A stretch of DNA of 23,161 nt from a virus (Duplodnaviria; Heunggongvirae; Uroviricota; Caudoviricetes). This document shows positions 123 through 23,161 of this stretch, in pieces. Made by a program: the position numbers and the translations under genes. Below the pieces are notes generated by a model that did not search any database, was not told the origin of the DNA, and was given only the letters and a program-made list of their open reading frames with translations. The DNA lies in the IMG/VR virus record IMGVR_UViG_2695420643_000009; one strand, 5' to 3'. Every line of letters begins with the position of its first letter. The stretch's first letter is position 1.

Positions 123-527
123 ATGGATCAGGTCGTTGTTTTTCAAAAGATGTTTGAGCAAGTGAGAAAAGAGCAAAACTTCTCCTGGTTTTATTCAGAA
201 TTAAAACATCACCGTATTGCACATTACATTTATTATCTGGCTACGGATAACATCAGAATTATTACTCACGATGACACGGTTTTGTTATTAAGAGGAACCA
301 GGAACCTGTTAAAAGTTAGTACGACCAAGAACCCTGCTAAAATAAAAGAGGCCGCATTGCTTCATATTTGCGGAAAATCTACATTTCGGGAATACTGTTC
401 AACACTAGCAGGCGCGGGCGTTTTCCGGTGGGTTACTGATGTTAATCATAACAAACGCAGTTACTACGCCATTGATAATACGCTTTTATATATTGAAGAT
501 GTAGAAAATAATAAACCATTAATCTAG
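123..527 (+). CDS. ycgX: DUF1398-family protein YcgX (chromosomal, function unknown)
   Basis: 134-aa ORF MDQVVVFQKMFEQVRKEQNF...; matches my recollection of E. coli YcgX in length and sequence, and sits next to iraM as in K-12. AAGAGG RBS 11 nt upstream of the ATG. Confidence 0.8.
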   Translation: MDQVVVFQKMFEQVRKEQNFSWFYSELKHHRIAHYIYYLATDNIRIITHDDTVLLLRGTRNLLKVSTTKNPAKIKEAALLHICGKSTFREYCSTLAGAGVFRWVTDVNHNKRSYYAIDNTLLYIEDVENNKPLI

Positions 528-2046: not shown

Positions 2047-2880
2047 TTATTTCTGTAATCGGTTTATATTAACGTAAAGCATCTCGATTAGTTCTTTTGC
2101 ATTTTTACTATAGTGCAATTCTCTATGGCAATTCGGACAAAGGGCAACACAGTTATCTGTTGTATCAGCACCACCTGAAGACAGGGGAATTACATGATGC
2201 ACTTCCAAATATGGGTTTCCATCATTTAAATAAAACGGAGCATTTTTACCACAGTTTTCACATATACCTTTACTTTGCTGTAAAATCCAAGCTTTTACCA
2301 TCGGGTCTCGGACATAAACTTTTTGTAGTCTTTCTACCTCAACTGGTTTCCTGGAGCCCTCGGGTTGACTCAACGTTTTCTTAATTAATTTACTAACCCT
2401 CATATTCAGAAGCGATTCATCATCTGTAGGCTGTGAAAGCTCTGATAGTTCTCCACGTATTATAGACGCCCAAAAACTGTCACTATAAATACCTGGAACA
2501 TTTATCAATATTCGTTTCGTTCTATTGCCGGAAGGAATTTCCTTTCTCCCCGTACGACTAAAATAAGCCTGATAACCACACATCTTCAAGCGTATATCGC
2601 GGGGGCTATTACCAATCAAAGTAAAATATTCACCAGGATGGATTTTTCTTTCATCCAAAGAATGCATATGTTTTCTGACTGATGATGACGCCAGATATAC
2701 TACGACTTGGGATACACCAGAATCAACCAACCGTTCAATGATATAATCAAGAGCGATATTGTAATCTTTGTTTCTGTCACCCGGCCCCCACGACTCAAGG
2801 ATTAGACCATAAACACCATCCTCTTCACCTATCGAACACTCAGCTTTCAGTTCAATTCCATTGTTATCAAAAACATGCAT
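2047..2880 (-). CDS. mcrA: McrA, 5-methylcytosine-specific restriction endonuclease (HNH nuclease)
   Basis: 277-aa ORF; C-terminal HNH/zinc motif CENCGK...EVHHVIPLSSGGADTTDNCVALCPNCH visible; length and sequence match my recollection of K-12 McrA; position (phage end next to pin) as in e14. Confidence 0.9.
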   Translation of the reverse strand: MHVFDNNGIELKAECSIGEEDGVYGLILESWGPGDRNKDYNIALDYIIERLVDSGVSQVVVYLASSSVRKHMHSLDERKIHPGEYFTLIGNSPRDIRLKMCGYQAYFSRTGRKEIPSGNRTKRILINVPGIYSDSFWASIIRGELSELSQPTDDESLLNMRVSKLIKKTLSQPEGSRKPVEVERLQKVYVRDPMVKAWILQQSKGICENCGKNAPFYLNDGNPYLEVHHVIPLSSGGADTTDNCVALCPNCHRELHYSKNAKELIEMLYVNINRLQK

Positions 2881-2986: not shown

Positions 2987-3541
2987 TTATTTATCCCCTG
3001 CAGGAAACCTCTTATACAAAGTTGACACACCAACATCATAGATAATCGCCACCTTCTGGCGAGGAACTCCTGATGCAATTAATCGTCCGGCCTGTTCCCA
3101 TTGTTCTGGTGTAAGTTTGGGACGACGTCCACCAATTCGTCCCTGTGCGCGAGCAGCTTCCAGTCCAGCTTTTGTTCTTTCAACAATCAGTTCACGCTCC
3201 ATTTCAGCCAGGGCACCCATCACATGAAAGAAAAAGCGCCCCATTGGGGTACTGGTATCAATTGAATCCGTCAGACTACGAAAGTTGATGCCTCGTTCGC
3301 GCAACTCCTCCACCAGCACGACAAGATGCCGCATACTGCGCCCTAGTCGGTCCAGTTTCCAGACCACCAGCGTATCACCTGCCGATAATGTCCTGAGCAG
3401 TTTTTTCAGTCCCGGCCTTTCGGACTTTGTACCGCTTATCTTGTCTTCAAAAATCAGCTCGCATCCTGCACAGTTCAGCGCATTACGTTGTAGATCTGTG
3501 TTCTGGTCATTTGTTGACACACGTACATAGCCAATAAGCAT
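2987..3541 (-). CDS. pinE: Pin DNA invertase (serine recombinase, Gin/Hin/Cin/Pin family)
   Basis: MLIGYVRVSTNDQNTDLQRNAL... with the catalytic-serine motif GYVRVST and a C-terminal HTH; 184 aa from the ATG at 3541, which has a GGGAG RBS 8 nt upstream. The ORF track's longer 196-aa start at 3577 has no RBS. Confidence 0.9.
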   Translation of the reverse strand: MLIGYVRVSTNDQNTDLQRNALNCAGCELIFEDKISGTKSERPGLKKLLRTLSAGDTLVVWKLDRLGRSMRHLVVLVEELRERGINFRSLTDSIDTSTPMGRFFFHVMGALAEMERELIVERTKAGLEAARAQGRIGGRRPKLTPEQWEQAGRLIASGVPRQKVAIIYDVGVSTLYKRFPAGDK

Positions 3542-3567
3542 GGTAGATCTCCCTGACAAAAGCAGGA

Positions 3568-4119
3568 ATGATGCCATTTGCTCGTTATTTCTGCATTTTC
3601 ATAAACGTTGGTTTGGGAGAAGGTTCGGCATTACCCGTTGGCGTGCCTGTTCCGTGGCCTTCCGCCACTCCGCCAACAGGCTGGCTGAAATGCAACGGTG
3701 CCGCTTTTTCTGCTGAAGAATACCCGGAACTGGCAAAGGCTTATCCGACAAATAAATTGCCTGATTTACGTGGTGAGTTTATTCGTGGCTGGGATGACGG
3801 GCGTGGAGTGGATAGCGGTCGTACTTTATTAACGAATCAAGAGCATGCAGTAATTTCTCATAATCATGGAATACCTACAAAAGTGGGGTCAGTTACTAAT
3901 ATCCCGTATGGAATAGAACAGGTTATATCTGATGAAACCATTTTTTCATCAGCAAAAACAGTTGGTGTGGATTACTGGTCTAACAGTGAGCGAGTTTTTA
4001 CTTATACCACTGGTGGAAGAAATGGTGCTGAATCAGTGAGTTCACCTGATGCCTCCTCTTTAATTAAAGAAACCAGACCACGGAACCTGGCATTTGCGTA
4101 TATCGTGAGGGCTGCATAA
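3568..4119 (+). CDS. stfE: Promoterless tail-fibre C-terminal (variable) cassette, stfE-like, duplicate copy A; lacks the constant N-terminal fibre domain
   Basis: 183-aa ORF whose residues from [32 protein letters not shown] to AYIVRAA are identical to the C-terminal 150 aa of the expressed fibre 6024..6824. DNA identity checked at several points. Confidence 0.55.
   Translation: MMPFARYFCIFINVGLGEGSALPVGVPVPWPSATPPTGWLKCNGAAFSAEEYPELAKAYPTNKLPDLRGEFIRGWDDGRGVDSGRTLLTNQEHAVISHNHGIPTKVGSVTNIPYGIEQVISDETIFSSAKTVGVDYWSNSERVFTYTTGGRNGAESVSSPDASSLIKETRPRNLAFAYIVRAA
3596..3621 (+). promoter_or_regulatory. pixL: 26-bp Pin crossover site (TTTTCATAAACG-TT-GGTTTGGGAGAA)
   Basis: Imperfect dyad with the same 12-2-12 architecture as gix (TTCCTGTAAACC-GA-GGTTTTGGATAA, from memory); lies between pin and the cassette; inverted-repeat identity with pixR starts exactly at the central dinucleotide (3608). 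Confidence 0.6.
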
Positions 4120-4550
4120 TGGATTACGCTGTATTAAATAACGAATTTATCGCCACCCAAGCAGGAAATATTACGGTTTATAACTATGATGGTGAAACAC
4201 GGGAATATATTTTCACATCAACTGAATATCTTGCTGTGGGTGTCGGCATTCCGGCATGTTCCTGTTTAGATGCTCCTGGCTCATACAAAACTGGGTATGC
4301 AATCTGCCGTTCTGCAGATTTTAACTCATGGGAATATGTGCCAGACCATCGTGGTGAAATCGTCTTTAGCACAGAAACAGGAGAATCAAAAGAAATCAAA
4401 GCTCCGGGTGATTACCCTGAAAATACAACCACTATCGCCCCTTTATCTCCATACGATAAATGGGATGGTGAGAAATGGGTAACCGATACTGAGGCACAGC
4501 ATAGCGCCGCAGTAGACGCGGCAGAAGCACAGCGCCAGTCACTGATTGAT
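3608..4550. repeat. Inverted repeat copy A (943 bp): stfE variable cassette plus first 144 codons of tfaE
   Basis: Perfect identity to the reverse complement of 5593..6535 wherever I spot-checked (boundaries, 4081..4140 vs 6001..6060, 4201..4260 vs 5881..5940); translated ORFs are identical. Confidence 0.85.
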
Positions 4551-5450: not shown

Positions 5451-6024
5451 CATTCGGCGCGGTGCTGGTATCTGTTGCCGTCACCGCGTCAATGTAATCC
5501 AGCACAGCGTTAAGCTGGGTTGTTTCTGCCTGCGTCAGTTTCCGTCCGGCCTGTAATTTCAGCTGAATCAGACTGATGGAAGCCATTGCAGCATCAATCA
5601 GTGACTGGCGCTGTGCTTCTGCCGCGTCTACTGCGGCGCTATGCTGTGCCTCAGTATCGGTTACCCATTTCTCACCATCCCATTTATCGTATGGAGATAA
5701 AGGGGCGATAGTGGTTGTATTTTCAGGGTAATCACCCGGAGCTTTGATTTCTTTTGATTCTCCTGTTTCTGTGCTAAAGACGATTTCACCACGATGGTCT
5801 GGCACATATTCCCATGAGTTAAAATCTGCAGAACGGCAGATTGCATACCCAGTTTTGTATGAGCCAGGAGCATCTAAACAGGAACATGCCGGAATGCCGA
5901 CACCCACAGCAAGATATTCAGTTGATGTGAAAATATATTCCCGTGTTTCACCATCATAGTTATAAACCGTAATATTTCCTGCTTGGGTGGCGATAAATTC
6001 GTTATTTAATACAGCGTAATCCAT
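5422..6024 (-). CDS. tfaE: Tail-fibre assembly protein TfaE
   Basis: 200-aa [28 protein letters not shown]...VIWPELPEA; start overlaps the fibre stop; matches my recollection of e14 TfaE (200 aa). Confidence 0.85.
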   Translation of the reverse strand: MDYAVLNNEFIATQAGNITVYNYDGETREYIFTSTEYLAVGVGIPACSCLDAPGSYKTGYAICRSADFNSWEYVPDHRGEIVFSTETGESKEIKAPGDYPENTTTIAPLSPYDKWDGEKWVTDTEAQHSAAVDAAEAQRQSLIDAAMASISLIQLKLQAGRKLTQAETTQLNAVLDYIDAVTATDTSTAPNVIWPELPEA

Positions 6025-6535
6025 TATGCAGCCCTCACGATATACGCAAATGCCAGGTTCCGTGGTCTGGTTTCTTTAATTAAAGAGGAGGCATCAGGTG
6101 AACTCACTGATTCAGCACCATTTCTTCCACCAGTGGTATAAGTAAAAACTCGCTCACTGTTAGACCAGTAATCCACACCAACTGTTTTTGCTGATGAAAA
6201 AATGGTTTCATCAGATATAACCTGTTCTATTCCATACGGGATATTAGTAACTGACCCCACTTTTGTAGGTATTCCATGATTATGAGAAATTACTGCATGC
6301 TCTTGATTCGTTAATAAAGTACGACCGCTATCCACTCCACGCCCGTCATCCCAGCCACGAATAAACTCACCACGTAAATCAGGCAATTTATTTGTCGGAT
6401 AAGCCTTTGCCAGTTCCGGGTATTCTTCAGCAGAAAAAGCGGCACCGTTGCATTTCAGCCAGCCTGTTGGCGGAGTGGCGGAAGGCCACGGAACAGGCAC
6501 GCCAACGGGTAATGCCGAACCTTCTCCCAAACCAA
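5593..6535. repeat. Inverted repeat copy B (943 bp): expressed stfE variable region plus tfaE N-terminal part
   Basis: Reverse complement identical to 3608..4550 (see copy A). Confidence 0.85.
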
Positions 6536-6824
6536 GGTTTTCGAGAGCTGTTTTCACCGTGCCATCCGATTTGATATCGCCAAACGGATTCTTGCGGCTT
6601 AACAGCAGCGCACGAAGCGCGGTAAGCAACTGGTCGTGCCGCGCCTTCTCCAGGCTGGCACCGGATGCCTCCACCACGCTGCAGAGTTCTTCCTGCAACA
6701 TATCAAAGTAGTCATCATCCAGATCGGTGGCAGGCGTGCCAGTCTGGGGGTTACCACGGGTAAAACCGTTCTTACCCACGCCGAACTTATCCTTCTGCGC
6801 GGTTTTCGTGTCTATACGATGCAT
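6024..6824 (-). CDS. Side tail-fibre protein: constant N-terminal domain (about 116 aa) fused at a GLGE junction to the stfE-type variable C-terminal domain; currently the expressed fibre
   Basis: 266-aa [24 protein letters not shown]...; GGAG RBS 7 nt upstream; start 3 nt after the ymfQ stop; C-terminal half is duplicated at 3608..4119. Confidence 0.85.
6522..6547 (-). promoter_or_regulatory. pixR: 26-bp Pin crossover site inside the fibre gene (minus strand CTCTCGAAAACC-TT-GGTTTGGGAGAA)
   Basis: Near-palindromic; same right half as pixL but on the opposite strand (inverted orientation, as inversion requires); encodes the ...ENLG-LGE junction of the fibre. Confidence 0.6.
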
Positions 6825-19386: not shown

Positions 19387-20037
19387 TTAGAAGTTCAGAT
19401 TTTTCAGTGCATTCAGTGCAGAGCCCACATCCTCAGCGTCGCGCAGGGACAGTGCGCCATAGCCCCCGGCCATGAATGCTTTGGCCTGGGTACGGGAGAG
19501 TCCGACATCACGCAGGACTCTTTCGATTTTTTTCTGTTCGGGGATTTCCCCGCGGGCCAGTGCGTTCTTGACGTCGCTGATCCGCGCCTCGTCGTTAGAC
19601 GGGAACGTCACCAGGCTGACTTCCCAGAGGTCGATTTCTTTCAGCAGAAAGGCTTCTTTGCTCCGGTCGTATTCCCAGTCTTTCAGGACGTACCCAATAG
19701 AAAGGCCGGTTAACGAACCGGCCTTCATGTGTGCATGTGCGCGTTTTGCGAGGGGATCATCATCAATAAGCAACCGTCCCCTGACGTAAAGCCCGACATC
19801 GTCTTCCTTCATTTCGGTGTAAACACCGATGGGTTCATCCATGCGGTGCTGCCAGAGCAGCGCAGGTAACGCTTTTCTGTCACTCCACGCCCGCAGGGAA
19901 GCAGCAAATGCCCCGGACATCACCACATCATCGTGGCTGTCCTTTACACCAAAGACGGAGCCATACCCTTCAAACTCACCGGAGTCACTGACAGATTTCA
20001 GACTCAGCGGTACATCAAGACGTTGTTTCGTCTGCAT
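19387..20037 (-). CDS. Prohead protease, HK97 family
   Basis: EGYGSVFGVKDSHDDVVMSGAF motif region. Start taken at the ATG at 20037 (AAGGA RBS upstream) rather than the track start at 20073; overlaps the portal 3' end by 23 nt. Confidence 0.8.
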   Translation of the reverse strand: MQTKQRLDVPLSLKSVSDSGEFEGYGSVFGVKDSHDDVVMSGAFAASLRAWSDRKALPALLWQHRMDEPIGVYTEMKEDDVGLYVRGRLLIDDDPLAKRAHAHMKAGSLTGLSIGYVLKDWEYDRSKEAFLLKEIDLWEVSLVTFPSNDEARISDVKNALARGEIPEQKKIERVLRDVGLSRTQAKAFMAGGYGALSLRDAEDVGSALNALKNLNF

Positions 20038-21256
20038 TGGCGTTATCCTTCTGCTTACCGGCTTTACTGCCATCGGAGGGTTTCGTGGTCATGTTCATCG
20101 GTGTGAGATAGACATCACCACCGGGACGCGGATTCATATCTTCCAGGTCGCGGCAGTCATTGGGAGAGTAAATTCCCCAGTTAATCCCGGTGGCGTAGGC
20201 TTCAAAACGGGACTTCATATCCCCGCGCAGTAACGCCCCGGCGTTAAATTTGGCGTAATAAACGCCCTGCTTACTTTTTCGTACCAGTCCGGTGTTGATC
20301 CGCTGTTCGATGCGGGTCAGATACGGCACCAGTGAATAGTTGATAAATCCGAGCCCCAGTTCTTCGATATTGTTGAAGGTGGCGCGATCGGTGTTCTGCA
20401 CCATGTGCAACGGTACCCGGAACAGACGACAGATTTCTTCAAGCTGAAACTTGCGGGTTTCCAGGAACTGGCTGTCCTCGGCGTTCAGCGCCATCGACTT
20501 CCAGTCCAGCCCCATCTCAAGGATCATCGGGCGGTGAGCATTGCCAAGCCCGGTGTGACGCTCCTCAAAATCTTTCTTCAGGCGCTCGTAAGCCTGATCT
20601 GACAGCGTCTGCTCTGTACGCAACACACCCGACGTCACCGCGCCATTGCTGAACAGTCTGGCCCCGTGCTCTTCGGTCGCTGCCGCCAGCGATATTGCCT
20701 CGCGGGCATAGGCGATGGGATTCAGCCCCACCAGTCCGTCCAGCGTCAGCGTGCGCACATGCCAGATATCCTCCTGGCTCAGTACATCCGTGGAGCCATC
20801 CGGGAATGTGACCTGATAGACCGGCTCCCAGCTACTGTTAAGCTTCGGTACCACACAGCCGGGATCGACGGGCAGCAGTTCAGCCACTTCGCCAAATGCT
20901 TTCACTTTGTAGGCATAAAAGTTTCCCCGCAGGCACAGACAGGTGACCACCAGCTCCCAGAACTCCTGCGGCGTCATATAGCCATTGGGATGCGTGGAGA
21001 TCAGCTTATGCAGACGTTCGCCAGTGGCTCTCTGCTTCAGGCTGCCGTTCAGGCGATACAGGTTGCAGGGCAACATCCCGACCGACTCCGCCAGCACCCT
21101 GACGCAGGAAAAAACCGCCGTCAGTCGCATGGCCCTCTGGCTGCTGATCTGCTTTCCGGTATAGGTGTCGTATGACAGCCCGATAGCATCCACCAGCTCT
21201 GCTGGCGTGGTCACCGGTGCGTCACTTTTTCGTTGAAATAATCCCGAAAAGAACAC
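20015..21256 (-). CDS. Portal protein, HK97 family
   Basis: 413-aa ORF starting with GTG that overlaps the stop of the upstream small gene by 1 nt; portal-family resemblance; position between terminase and protease. Confidence 0.85.
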   Translation of the reverse strand: MFFSGLFQRKSDAPVTTPAELVDAIGLSYDTYTGKQISSQRAMRLTAVFSCVRVLAESVGMLPCNLYRLNGSLKQRATGERLHKLISTHPNGYMTPQEFWELVVTCLCLRGNFYAYKVKAFGEVAELLPVDPGCVVPKLNSSWEPVYQVTFPDGSTDVLSQEDIWHVRTLTLDGLVGLNPIAYAREAISLAAATEEHGARLFSNGAVTSGVLRTEQTLSDQAYERLKKDFEERHTGLGNAHRPMILEMGLDWKSMALNAEDSQFLETRKFQLEEICRLFRVPLHMVQNTDRATFNNIEELGLGFINYSLVPYLTRIEQRINTGLVRKSKQGVYYAKFNAGALLRGDMKSRFEAYATGINWGIYSPNDCRDLEDMNPRPGGDVYLTPMNMTTKPSDGSKAGKQKDNANADETTS

Positions 21257-21438
21257 TATTTACCTCCACCAACAGACATCTGTGTACGGTCGAGATATCG
21301 CGCCACCAGCCACGACCAGAACAGGCACAACGCCCCGGCAACAACAAACCCCGCCGGGGGATAAATCAGCCAGGCACCATACGCCAGCAAAAGCACCCCC
21401 AGCACGCCCACCAGAGGCGCGAGAATCAGCATGATCAT
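21256..21438 (-). CDS. ymfR: Small two-helix membrane protein (YmfR-like)
   Basis: 60-aa [56 protein letters not shown]...; GAGG RBS; coupled to the portal gene. Symbol assigned from the matching length and position of e14 ymfR as I recall it. Confidence 0.55.
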
Positions 21439-21449
21439 AATTACCTCAG

Positions 21450-23060
21450 TTAAAGCGAGCGGATCCCGTAGGACTCAATGTGGTCGGACAGCGCGTCTTC
21501 TTTCTCATACAGCATGGCTCTGCCAACCGCCATAATCAGCGCAACTGCACCATCGATTTTGTTTTCCGCCTGCTCTTTGACGGGCTTCACCACATCATCG
21601 TTACCCGGAATGGTTTTGCCGACCACGTTGCCGATACACCAGGTCATGATGGGATTGCCATCATGATGAAAGCGCCCCGATTCAATTGCCGCTTCCAGCT
21701 CTTTCATCGGGTCGGACATGTTGGTGTAGTTCTGAATGATGGTGATGGGATTCAGGTCTTCATCAGCAAGGTCATGTGACAGCCCGGTCGCCCCGAAGGG
21801 GTCGATGGGTGACTCGCTGACCGGGCTGATTTTGTTCGCCGCTTTGGCCTCTTCGAGGATGTAGCGATAATCCACCTCTGCACCATCGGTAACGGTCAGG
21901 ACGCCCATTTCCACCCATTTCTGAAAGCGTTCGGCTGTCCGGCGATCTTCATTTTTCTCGACGCTGTACACCGTGTCATACGGTACCCAGAAACGCGGGG
22001 CCACACTGTAGTAATGCGTTTTACCGTCAATCTCGCGGGTATAAAGTCGCGCCATGCTGTTCATATCCAGCTTACGCGCCAGGTCAAAGGCCAGAATGCA
22101 CGGCTGCCCCTCGAACTGCTCAAGAGTCAGTGATTTATCCTCGCAGCTCTGCCAGCTCACCAGGTTGAAATACGCCGAACGCGCCGACACCCAGATATTG
22201 AGGTGTTTTGTTTTAAAGACGTTTGCCAGACGGGCGTTATTTTTCGCACGCTGCTGCTGACTTAACAAAAATTCGCGATAAACCGACACGCCAATATTCG
22301 GGTTAGCTTTTTCCAGCACCTGCGGGTCGGTCCAGTCATCGCCTTCGTCAACGGTATAGATGATCCCGAACAGTTCATCGTTGGGTACCGACCCGTTGAG
22401 CATCTCGATAACTTCCCGTCGCTTGTCGTAGCACGGCCCCTCAATGTTGTACCCGGCGGTGGTGATGGCCCACATCAGTGGCTGACGTCGCGCGCCCATC
22501 CCGGTAAGCATCGTGGTATAAAGCGCATCGGTGGCGTGCTCGTGATATTCATCCACCACGGCACAGTGGGGTGATGAACCATCACCGGGGTTACCGATCA
22601 GCGGTTCAAACCGCGCGCCATCCTCCGGACGGTTCATGTTTGAGGCGTTAACCTCAATCCCGAACGCTTCCGTCAGCATGGGTGTGCGTTTACACATCAG
22701 TCGTGCCGGGCGAAAGACTTCCCACGCCTGTTTCTCTGTCGTGGCACCGGAATACACTTCCGCGCCAAACTCGTTATCACAGGCAAAACAATACAGGGCA
22801 ACACCGGCAGAGATTGCCGATTTGCCGTTCTTACGGGGGATTTCGGTATACACCTCCCGGAAGCGGCGCAGCCGGGCCCCTTTATTGACCCAGCCAAACG
22901 CACAGCAGACCACAAATAGCTGCCACGGCTCCAGCGTGATGGGCATCCTCTTGAATGCCCACTCACCCTTGGTGTGCGGCAACAGCTGAATAAATTTGGC
23001 GGCCCGTTCAGCCAGGTCCTTGTCGAAGCGGTAACGAAACGACTTACTTTTTTCCGCCAT
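21450..23060 (-). CDS. Terminase large subunit
   Basis: 536-aa ORF; Walker A-like motif EIPRKNGKS; ATPase and nuclease arrangement; first gene of the packaging-head operon. Confidence 0.9.
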
Positions 23061-23081
23061 CAGGTCATCAAGATGGCGCTG
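23061..23081 (-). pseudogene. Last 6 codons (SAILMT*) of a truncated upstream gene, most likely the small terminase subunit, cut by the IS
   Basis: In the -1 frame relative to the terminase, the 21 bp between the IS end and the terminase ATG read AGC GCC ATC TTG ATG ACC TGA, with the TGA overlapping the terminase ATG (TGATG coupling). Confidence 0.45.
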
Positions 23082-23161
23082 TGAACCGCCCCGGAAATCC
23101 TGGAGACTAAACTCCCTGAGAAAGAGGTAAACAGGATGACTAAAAATACTCGTTTTTCCCC
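23082..23161 (+). mobile_element. IS3-family insertion sequence (IS629/IS3411-like), left end only; orfA starts at 23136 and reads rightward out of the window
   Basis: TGAACCGCCCCGGAAATCCTGGAGACTAAACTCCCTGAGAAAGAGGTAAACAGG-ATG-ACTAAAAATACTCGTTTTTCCCC; about 97 percent identical to the reverse complement of 1..105 (two mismatches seen). Confidence 0.7.

Follow-up and report, generated by a model that had tools for sequence, protein, structure and literature searches.

ymfR, a prophage gene for a predicted membrane hairpin, is a stable member of the HK97-type head-morphogenesis operon

ymfR is a 60-codon open reading frame (ORF) that lies, according to the ORF list and translation, between the large terminase (TerL) and portal genes at 21256..21438 (minus strand) of IMG/VR virus record IMGVR_UViG_2695420643_000009, a 23,161-nucleotide stretch of Caudoviricetes DNA referred to here, at its full length, as the window. 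The closest described counterpart is the same gene in the e14 prophage of Escherichia coli K-12 (b1150), which is 96–100% identical in DNA, encodes 60 amino acids and occupies the same slot between the aaaE and beeE remnants; in e14 the flanking TerL and portal genes are truncated, whereas in the window both are intact. In phage lambda the slot between the large terminase (A) and portal (B) genes is held by gpW (Ad1, 68 aa), a protein of similar size. Pinholin S21 and the class II holins are about 60–70 aa long, with two transmembrane helices, both termini in the cytoplasm (N-in/C-in) and a basic C-terminus. The architecture of two helices and a charged C-terminus is matched by YmfR, for which the orientation is deduced from charges, but class II holins are encoded next to endolysins, whereas ymfR is not and its product has no holin-family match. 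HK97 gp15, a superinfection-exclusion protein encoded by a moron, resembles YmfR in being a small inner-membrane protein encoded in the late structural operon of an HK97-type phage (PMC3594210). Unlike ymfR, the gene for gp15 carries its own promoter and terminator, has an aberrant GC content, is missing from relatives and originated from host yebO; it also lies in the tail module, whereas ymfR belongs to the head module. In T4, the membrane-bound portal initiator gp20 depends on the viral chaperone gp40, a phage factor active in portal assembly at the inner membrane (PMC9958956). We tentatively propose a comparable activity for YmfR, and the likeness to gp40 is functional and hypothetical only.

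The ORF is a real, protein-coding and already annotated prophage gene. A 301-nt query spanning it matched 1,343 of 5,426 complete E. coli genomes, in which the Prokaryotic Genome Annotation Pipeline (PGAP) names the gene ymfR, and the translated product matched PHROG 502 ('membrane protein') over residues 1–55 (E=7e-28); at E<=0.1 only PHROG families 502, 7105 and 12448 were recovered. The product has no Pfam family (the best match, TctB, was sub-threshold at E=0.07), searches of NCBIfam and PADLOC (E<=1) with YmfR returned no match, and Rfam gave no credible match to the region or the whole window. The first-pass annotation had described a 60-aa ORF with a GAGG ribosome-binding site (RBS) and a stop overlapping the portal GTG, and had named an equivalent ymfR in e14. 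These particulars were borne out, the gene and its position being the same in both prophages. The genes and signals of the junction are as follows.

21256..21438, minus strand: ymfR coding sequence, 60 aa and a TAG stop (translation; PGAP name on near-identical E. coli DNA; PHROG 502, E=7e-28; ratio of nonsynonymous to synonymous substitution rates, dN/dS, 0.23)
21444..21447, minus strand: ymfR Shine-Dalgarno (SD) sequence GAGG, followed by 5 nt to the ATG at 21438..21436; junction CTTTAACTGAGGTAATTATG
21263..21267, minus strand: GGAGG, the portal RBS, within ymfR codons 57–59; junction GGTGGAGGTAAATAGTG
20015..21256, minus strand: portal gene, 413 aa, GTG start (PF04860, E=1e-108; PHROG 12)
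21450..23161, minus strand: TerL gene, 5' end cut at the window edge (PF03354 and PF20441), the frame being open to the window end

The TerL stop TAA occupies 21452..21450, 11 nt from ymfR, and the ymfR stop TAG (21258..21256) shares base 21256 with the portal GTG (21256..21254), a spacing of -1 nt. Codon 3 offers a second ATG in the same frame; it lies 11 nt from the GAGG and is the less likely start. Of 90 unique family ORFs, 74 have an SD-like motif ahead of the start chosen for them. At the other end of the ORF, an SD-like motif falls within the final 18 nt in 52 of 84 unique family ORFs, compared with 3 of 84 in a control stretch. Because the portal RBS GGAGG is embedded there, conservation of the C-terminal GG[KE] of YmfR (window 21259–21267, codons 57–60) is largely a nucleotide constraint. 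The TerL ORF as listed (536 aa) is incomplete: in the nearly identical prophage of E. coli H7, PGAP assigns the gene 577 aa, which places about 7 codons beyond the window.

YmfR is predicted to be a helical hairpin of inner-membrane type with two hydrophobic helices. Residues 1–46 include no charged residue, the first charge being R47, and Kyte-Doolittle 15-residue means reach 2.9. An AlphaFold2 (AF2) model built on a 77-sequence alignment places helices at residues 2–25 and 29–57, joined at Y26-P27-P28, with a mean pLDDT of 79.6. Both lines of evidence support the two hydrophobic helices noted in the first-pass annotation, which had named helix prediction as one check. The following parts of the protein can be distinguished.

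21364..21435, minus strand: predicted transmembrane helix 1, codons 2–25, Gly-rich, with G11, G14 and G21 invariant (AF2; hydropathy 2.1–2.9)
21349..21363, minus strand: Y-P-P-A-G turn, codons 26–30, the most conserved motif of the family and probably periplasmic (conservation; AF2 break at 26–28)
21301..21348, minus strand: predicted transmembrane helix 2, codons 31–46, with G35 invariant and C38, W41, S42 and W43 invariant in enterobacterial members
21259..21300, minus strand: basic variable tail, codons 47–60 (R47, R51, K60), probably cytoplasmic (region dN/dS 0.76, the highest in the gene)

Across 77 sequences diverging to 33% identity, G14, G21, P28, G30 and G35 are invariant, while G11, W23, Y26, A29 and F31 are conserved in at least 90% of sequences over the same range; the conserved turn motif reads YGAW-x-IY-PPAG-F, and YmfR also fits the family pattern G-x(6)-G-A-W-x-x-Y-x-P-A-G-F. 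In the family, charges are confined to two places, an 'RD' that precedes helix 1 and an 'AR' that immediately follows helix 2, with K or R at the column after helix 2 in 70% of members. By the positive-inside rule, this distribution suggests a hairpin with both ends in the cytoplasm and a minimal periplasmic turn. A Foldseek search of the AF2 hairpin against the PDB gave no match at E<=0.001, and among PDB sequences the profile picked out nothing beyond a chance aquaporin match (E=0.29), with no relative in any solved phage structure.

Evidence that ymfR is maintained as a protein comes from 72 colinear E. coli-type loci, in which 14 of 16 polymorphic ymfR codons vary only synonymously; the two replacement sites are A/V15 and S/M/L54. 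In this set dN/dS was 0.23 for ymfR, 0.03 for TerL and 0.04 for the portal gene, so that purifying selection acts on the protein encoded by ymfR, though less strongly than on its neighbours. A pooled value of 0.54 over 28 unique 60-aa sequences was discarded, as distant pairs were saturated, and the close-set value is used throughout.

PHROG 502, the family that includes YmfR, is large and uncurated, and its members come from proteobacterial phages and prophages. When 1.84 billion representative sequences were searched with a profile, 410 clusters at 50% identity were recovered, nearly all of 45–90 aa and with the YGAW-x-IY-PPAG-F core; with a second profile the yield was at least 1,335 clusters defined at 90% identity, and no Pfam domain was found in any of them. 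The sources named are Burkholderiales, Azospirillum, Reyranellaceae, marine samples and uncultured Caudovirales, and all 52 distant members tested matched PHROG 502. Homologues also occur in Shigella phages SfI, SfII and SfIV, Salmonella ST64B, phiP27, phi467 and Klebsiella phages, and a 100% identical copy of the gene lies on a Shigella flexneri chromosome (L001). A second prophage copy on that chromosome (L006 4001-4179, S. flexneri SFBU0723) has a 1-nt deletion that leaves 179 rather than 180 nt of ymfR; the frameshift gives a 71-codon ORF overlapping the portal start, and TerL and portal are still 99.5–99.8% identical. Three clusters (P0153, P0188 and P0227) are tandem duplications of 102–122 aa. 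One of these, P0188 (L187 1500-1808, JGI metagenome 3300036819), encodes 102 aa forming two hairpins and sits in another head module, in the order 161-aa ORF, 320-aa ORF, duplicated ymfR, 100-aa ORF and S78 prohead protease gene. Apart from the S78 protease, its neighbours have no Pfam or PHROG match, and the context is uninformative.

Synteny was examined in 12 genome loci and 160 IMG/VR loci, all retrieved through ymfR itself. In every locus with a recognizable portal (169 of 172), a PF04860-type portal gene closely followed the small ORF on the same strand; the remaining three loci ended 124–137 nt past the small ORF. After dereplication, 86 of 90 unique ORFs had their stop overlapped, by 1 or 4 nt, by a start codon. 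TerL is usually directly 5' of the small ORF, and where 0.4–2 kb separates them the interval holds inserted DNA methyltransferase, HNH endonuclease or unknown ORFs. At one locus (L163) a TerL of another family (PHROG 2) is followed by an HNH gene, and the small ORF still abuts the portal gene; an insertion between small ORF and portal, encoding an endonuclease VII-like protein, was found in a single locus (L104). Across 83 unique loci, YmfR divergence gave a partial correlation of 0.69 with that of the portal and 0.32 with that of TerL, neither value being reached in 500 permutations, and at Serratia loci the identities are 35% for TerL, 73% for the portal and 54–60% for YmfR. Synteny with the portal gene persists down to about 28% portal identity. 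A count seeded on the portal is available for the 5,426 E. coli genomes, where the first 300 nt of the portal gene occur at 1,501 places and ymfR alone at 1,484 (98.9%); the one portal 5'-end place without ymfR that was inspected is a deleted, pseudogenized prophage, not an intact variant without ymfR. Thus, where the first-pass annotation had held that lack of conservation in related prophages would count against the gene, the ORF is kept across related loci, and the HK97-type head-morphogenesis operon includes ymfR as a stable component that is passed on vertically.

The slot was also surveyed in 18 annotated phages spread across the tblastn matches of the portal. Among the 12 proteobacterial phages sampled with HK97-type portals, five carry a small two-helix ORF there: D3 (orf3), Dina (gp25), Vibrio phages K254 (K254_0002) and P3 (P3_0062), and vB_EcoS-733R4. 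All five resemble YmfR in size (46–67 aa), in their two hydrophobic helices and in a basic tail. The Dina, K254 and 733R4 proteins are detectable family members (hhalign 94% for Dina; phmmer 1e-5 to 1e-7). D3 orf3 and P3_0062 lack significant similarity in sequence, and membership of D3 orf3 found no support from hhalign or phmmer; the two are either analogues or relatives diverged beyond detection. Campylobacter phage PC10 has a PemK-like gene in the slot, in an Stx1a-converting phage the matched gene and TerL are not neighbours, and the phages of Streptococcus, Staphylococcus, Paenibacillus, Mycobacterium and Acutalibacteraceae sampled had no hydrophobic ORF in the slot. The slot is therefore often filled by a two-helix protein in phages of Gram-negative hosts and, with the family reaching at least 1,335 clusters, the earlier description of a membrane protein gene at this site as atypical was overstated. 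Portals with and without an adjacent ymfR are both 30–42% identical to the nearest ymfR-positive portal, a comparison by which gain and loss are not separable. Two records of YmfR-like DNA carry Gram-positive names, namely a metagenome-assembled genome labeled 'Bacillota bacterium' (L004, JAEWTL010000102.1) and OR844959.1 ('Enterococcus phage Efm 3-10', 1,764 bp); both hold TerL-ymfR-portal DNA whose proteins are 94–99% identical to those of the E. coli prophage, and their assignment most likely reflects mis-binning or contamination.

Occupancy of the same slot invites comparison with lambda gpW. Homology was rejected: hhalign gave a probability of 4%, arising from a chance PAGF tetrapeptide, and gpW is hydrophilic whereas YmfR has 46 uncharged residues. 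YmfR homologues are labeled 'head-tail joining protein W' in ON470603.1, ON470584.1, ON470580.1 and PQ793804.1 (H23, H29, H30 and H32), a positional mis-annotation that neither sequence nor physicochemical character supports.

The first-pass annotation had suggested a moron, such as a superinfection-exclusion or toxin-like peptide, or else a membrane-associated assembly factor. Morons are recognized by their own promoter and terminator, deviating GC content, status as an obvious addition and expression from the prophage (PMC3594210). A consensus scan revealed no promoter- or terminator-like sites flanking ymfR, counts not exceeding those in shuffled sequence and a promoter inside terL being possible, and gaps of 11 and -1 nt leave no room for them. 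GC and third-position GC (GC3) are 0.585/0.672 for ymfR, 0.548/0.661 for TerL and 0.560/0.681 for the portal gene, so base composition does not deviate from that of the neighbours, and the near-constant presence of ymfR at E. coli places with this portal type is not the occurrence of a gene found in one phage and missing from close relatives. In K-12, ymfR mRNA rises 23-fold (log2FC 4.5) together with other e14 genes under SOS-inducing treatment (PMC10012262), which shows co-induction with e14 and no sign of separate regulation. The moron reading fails on these testable points, and YmfR is probably not a prophage-expressed moron. Superinfection exclusion by a prophage-made inner-membrane protein that blocks incoming phage DNA, in the manner of HK97 gp15 or T4 Imm, nevertheless has arguments on its side: the small inner-membrane architecture fits, gp15 provides a precedent inside a late operon (PMC3594210), ymfR is intact in the defective e14 of K-12 with both neighbours pseudogenes, and PHROGs files family 502 under 'moron, auxiliary metabolic gene and host takeover', albeit by annotation only. 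Fixed synteny down to 28% portal identity is unlike the behaviour of fast-turnover exclusion genes, PADLOC detected nothing, and replacement of ymfR in K-12, where it served as an integration site, was reported to be phenotypically neutral (PMC9145139), a finding that does not extend to exclusion. Together with the promoter, composition and occurrence data, these points make exclusion unlikely.

A role in lysis timing, as a holin- or antiholin-like class II protein modulating membrane permeabilization, is slightly less probable again. Size, the deduced N-in/C-in topology and the basic C-terminus resemble class II holins and pinholins, and late expression, which is presumed here, would suit such a role. 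However, the H7 prophage already has a full lysis cassette of canonical type, with a lambda-family holin, a GH24 endolysin and proteins resembling Rz and Rz1, which lies some 3.3 kb upstream of ymfR and is separated from it by TerL, TerS and an HNH gene; scans of Pfam and PHROGs gave no holin family with a threshold as loose as E<=0.1, helix 1 has a strong hydrophobicity that is not SAR-like, and the family is linked to the portal, not to endolysins. Improbable, too, is a virion or ejection protein, a hairpin carried at the portal or head and released on infection to aid formation of a DNA channel across the inner membrane. The site in the head module next to the portal gene, a conserved hydrophobic hairpin that could insert into a target membrane, and occurrence, in the sample examined, only in phages of Gram-negative hosts speak for it; yet one would expect YmfR, which has 46 uncharged residues and lacks a soluble domain, to insert co-translationally into the membrane of the producing cell, solved phage structures contain no relative, and virion-proteomics evidence was not found in the literature searched. 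Least credible is the absence of any protein function, the ORF being a translated spacer coupling portal to terminase, an ORF arisen by chance or a peptide akin to type I toxins. The overlap of the stop with the portal start, the portal RBS in the 3' end of ymfR and the near-neutral C-terminal tail (dN/dS 0.76) could be read in this way, but the sequence data largely refute it: YGAW-x-IY-PPAG-F-I-x-x-G is kept across more than 400 clusters at less than 50% identity, changes in the coding frame are mostly synonymous, and phages that lack the ORF couple TerL directly to portal, making a spacer unneeded. Nor does YmfR resemble a type I toxin-antitoxin peptide: it has two helices where such toxins have one, and no promoter, Rfam match or antisense element was found.

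The reading we tentatively favour, by analogy and at less than even confidence, is that YmfR, made late, serves the portal as an accessory factor of the inner membrane. It would be synthesized in step with terminase and portal and would insert into the inner membrane, its two termini on the cytoplasmic side, where it may tether or nucleate the portal/prohead initiation or packaging complex at the cytoplasmic membrane. The working unit might consist of two or more hairpins, as hinted by the tandem-duplicated natural variants. Of the alternatives raised in the first-pass annotation, a putative membrane-associated assembly factor fits the synteny best. In T4, genes 40 and 20 are not neighbours; PHROG (E<=0.1) and Pfam scans with YmfR revealed no head-assembly family, no direct comparison with gp40 having been made. 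To our knowledge, membrane-bound head initiation has not been described for HK97-type phages.

Several observations weigh against this role. An interaction of YmfR with the portal is hypothetical, and the constant position of ymfR next to the portal gene is subject to bias, most loci having been fetched via the gene itself, with the portal-seeded E. coli count as the exception. Start/stop overlap is the norm across these operons (in mEpX1 and phi2, for example, TerL and portal overlap in this way) and by itself is no sign of partnership, and the TerL-portal junction also takes insertions of HNH, methyltransferase and PemK genes. The dN/dS of ymfR is about sixfold that of portal and TerL. The head module around the tandem P0188 gene has no portal or TerL recognizable with Pfam or PHROGs, and the moron category assigned by PHROGs likewise points away from assembly. 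Finally, TerL runs directly to portal in phi2, RcapNL, phiL7, the HK97-like mEpX1, KPP5665-2 and Vibrio 1222, and HK97 itself lacks ymfR; since several HK97-type phages do without the gene, it is not generally required for HK97-type assembly. The earlier expectation that HK97-like operons go straight from terminase to portal accordingly holds for HK97, HK022-like mEpX1, phi2, RcapNL and phiL7, and not for five of the 12 proteobacterial phages sampled.

The window itself is an intact e14/SfV-type myovirus prophage, in agreement with what PGAP annotates in the nearly identical prophage of E. coli H7. K-12-type loci (L003, L005) have ymfR between a truncated TerL and a truncated portal, which is the e14 order aaaE-ymfR-beeE. 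At its left end the window holds a Pin-type invertase, a 277-aa HNH (McrA-like) protein (2047-2880, minus strand) and a DUF1398 gene (123-527, plus strand), and the order of invertase and McrA-like gene matches pinE-mcrA at the right end of e14; the HNH (McrA-like) and DUF1398 genes beyond the invertase suggest that the prophage boundary falls within the window. Adjoining the Pin-type serine invertase (2987..3577, minus strand) is a 948-nt inverted repeat (3603-4550 and 5593-6540) with arms that are 100% complementary and 1,042 nt apart, each encoding a tail-fibre C-terminus (Collar domain) and a tail-fibre assembly ORF. Invertible fibre segments usually have crossover sites of about 30 bp and differing fibre ends, whereas here both alternatives are identical, for which gene conversion might be responsible, or else an artefact of assembly. 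Within ymfR there are two GC-rich hairpins that resemble terminators (21420..21393 and 21362..21348, minus strand), one of which, CCCCGGCGGGG, is made up of the P-P-A-G codons. A terminator role was rejected, as 6 hairpins were found compared with 4.1 +/- 1.7 in shuffled sequences, and they are taken as by-products of Gly, Pro and Ala codons.

The gene itself is known and catalogued, as ymfR and as PHROG 502, but a search of the literature on ymfR/b1150 and on membrane proteins between terminase and portal found no functional study, and the scale of the family and its near-fixed placement 5' of the portal gene are apparently undescribed in the literature searched. Should YmfR prove to be an exclusion or lysis-timing protein instead, ymfR would be an ordinary accessory gene. 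If instead it does work with the portal at the membrane, the 'moron' category and the 'head-tail joining protein W' labels would need correcting, and there would be a bearing on where and how HK97-type phages start heads with exactly one portal. A wider and more doubtful proposal is that YmfR hairpins are widespread, unrecognized, portal-coupled inner-membrane factors that localize or nucleate assembly of the HK97-type portal ring, prohead or packaging complex at the cytoplasmic membrane of Proteobacteria, possibly as a portal-matched oligomeric ring. If this were true, membrane-initiated head assembly, so far a peculiarity of T4 (gp20/gp40), would be common among temperate phages.

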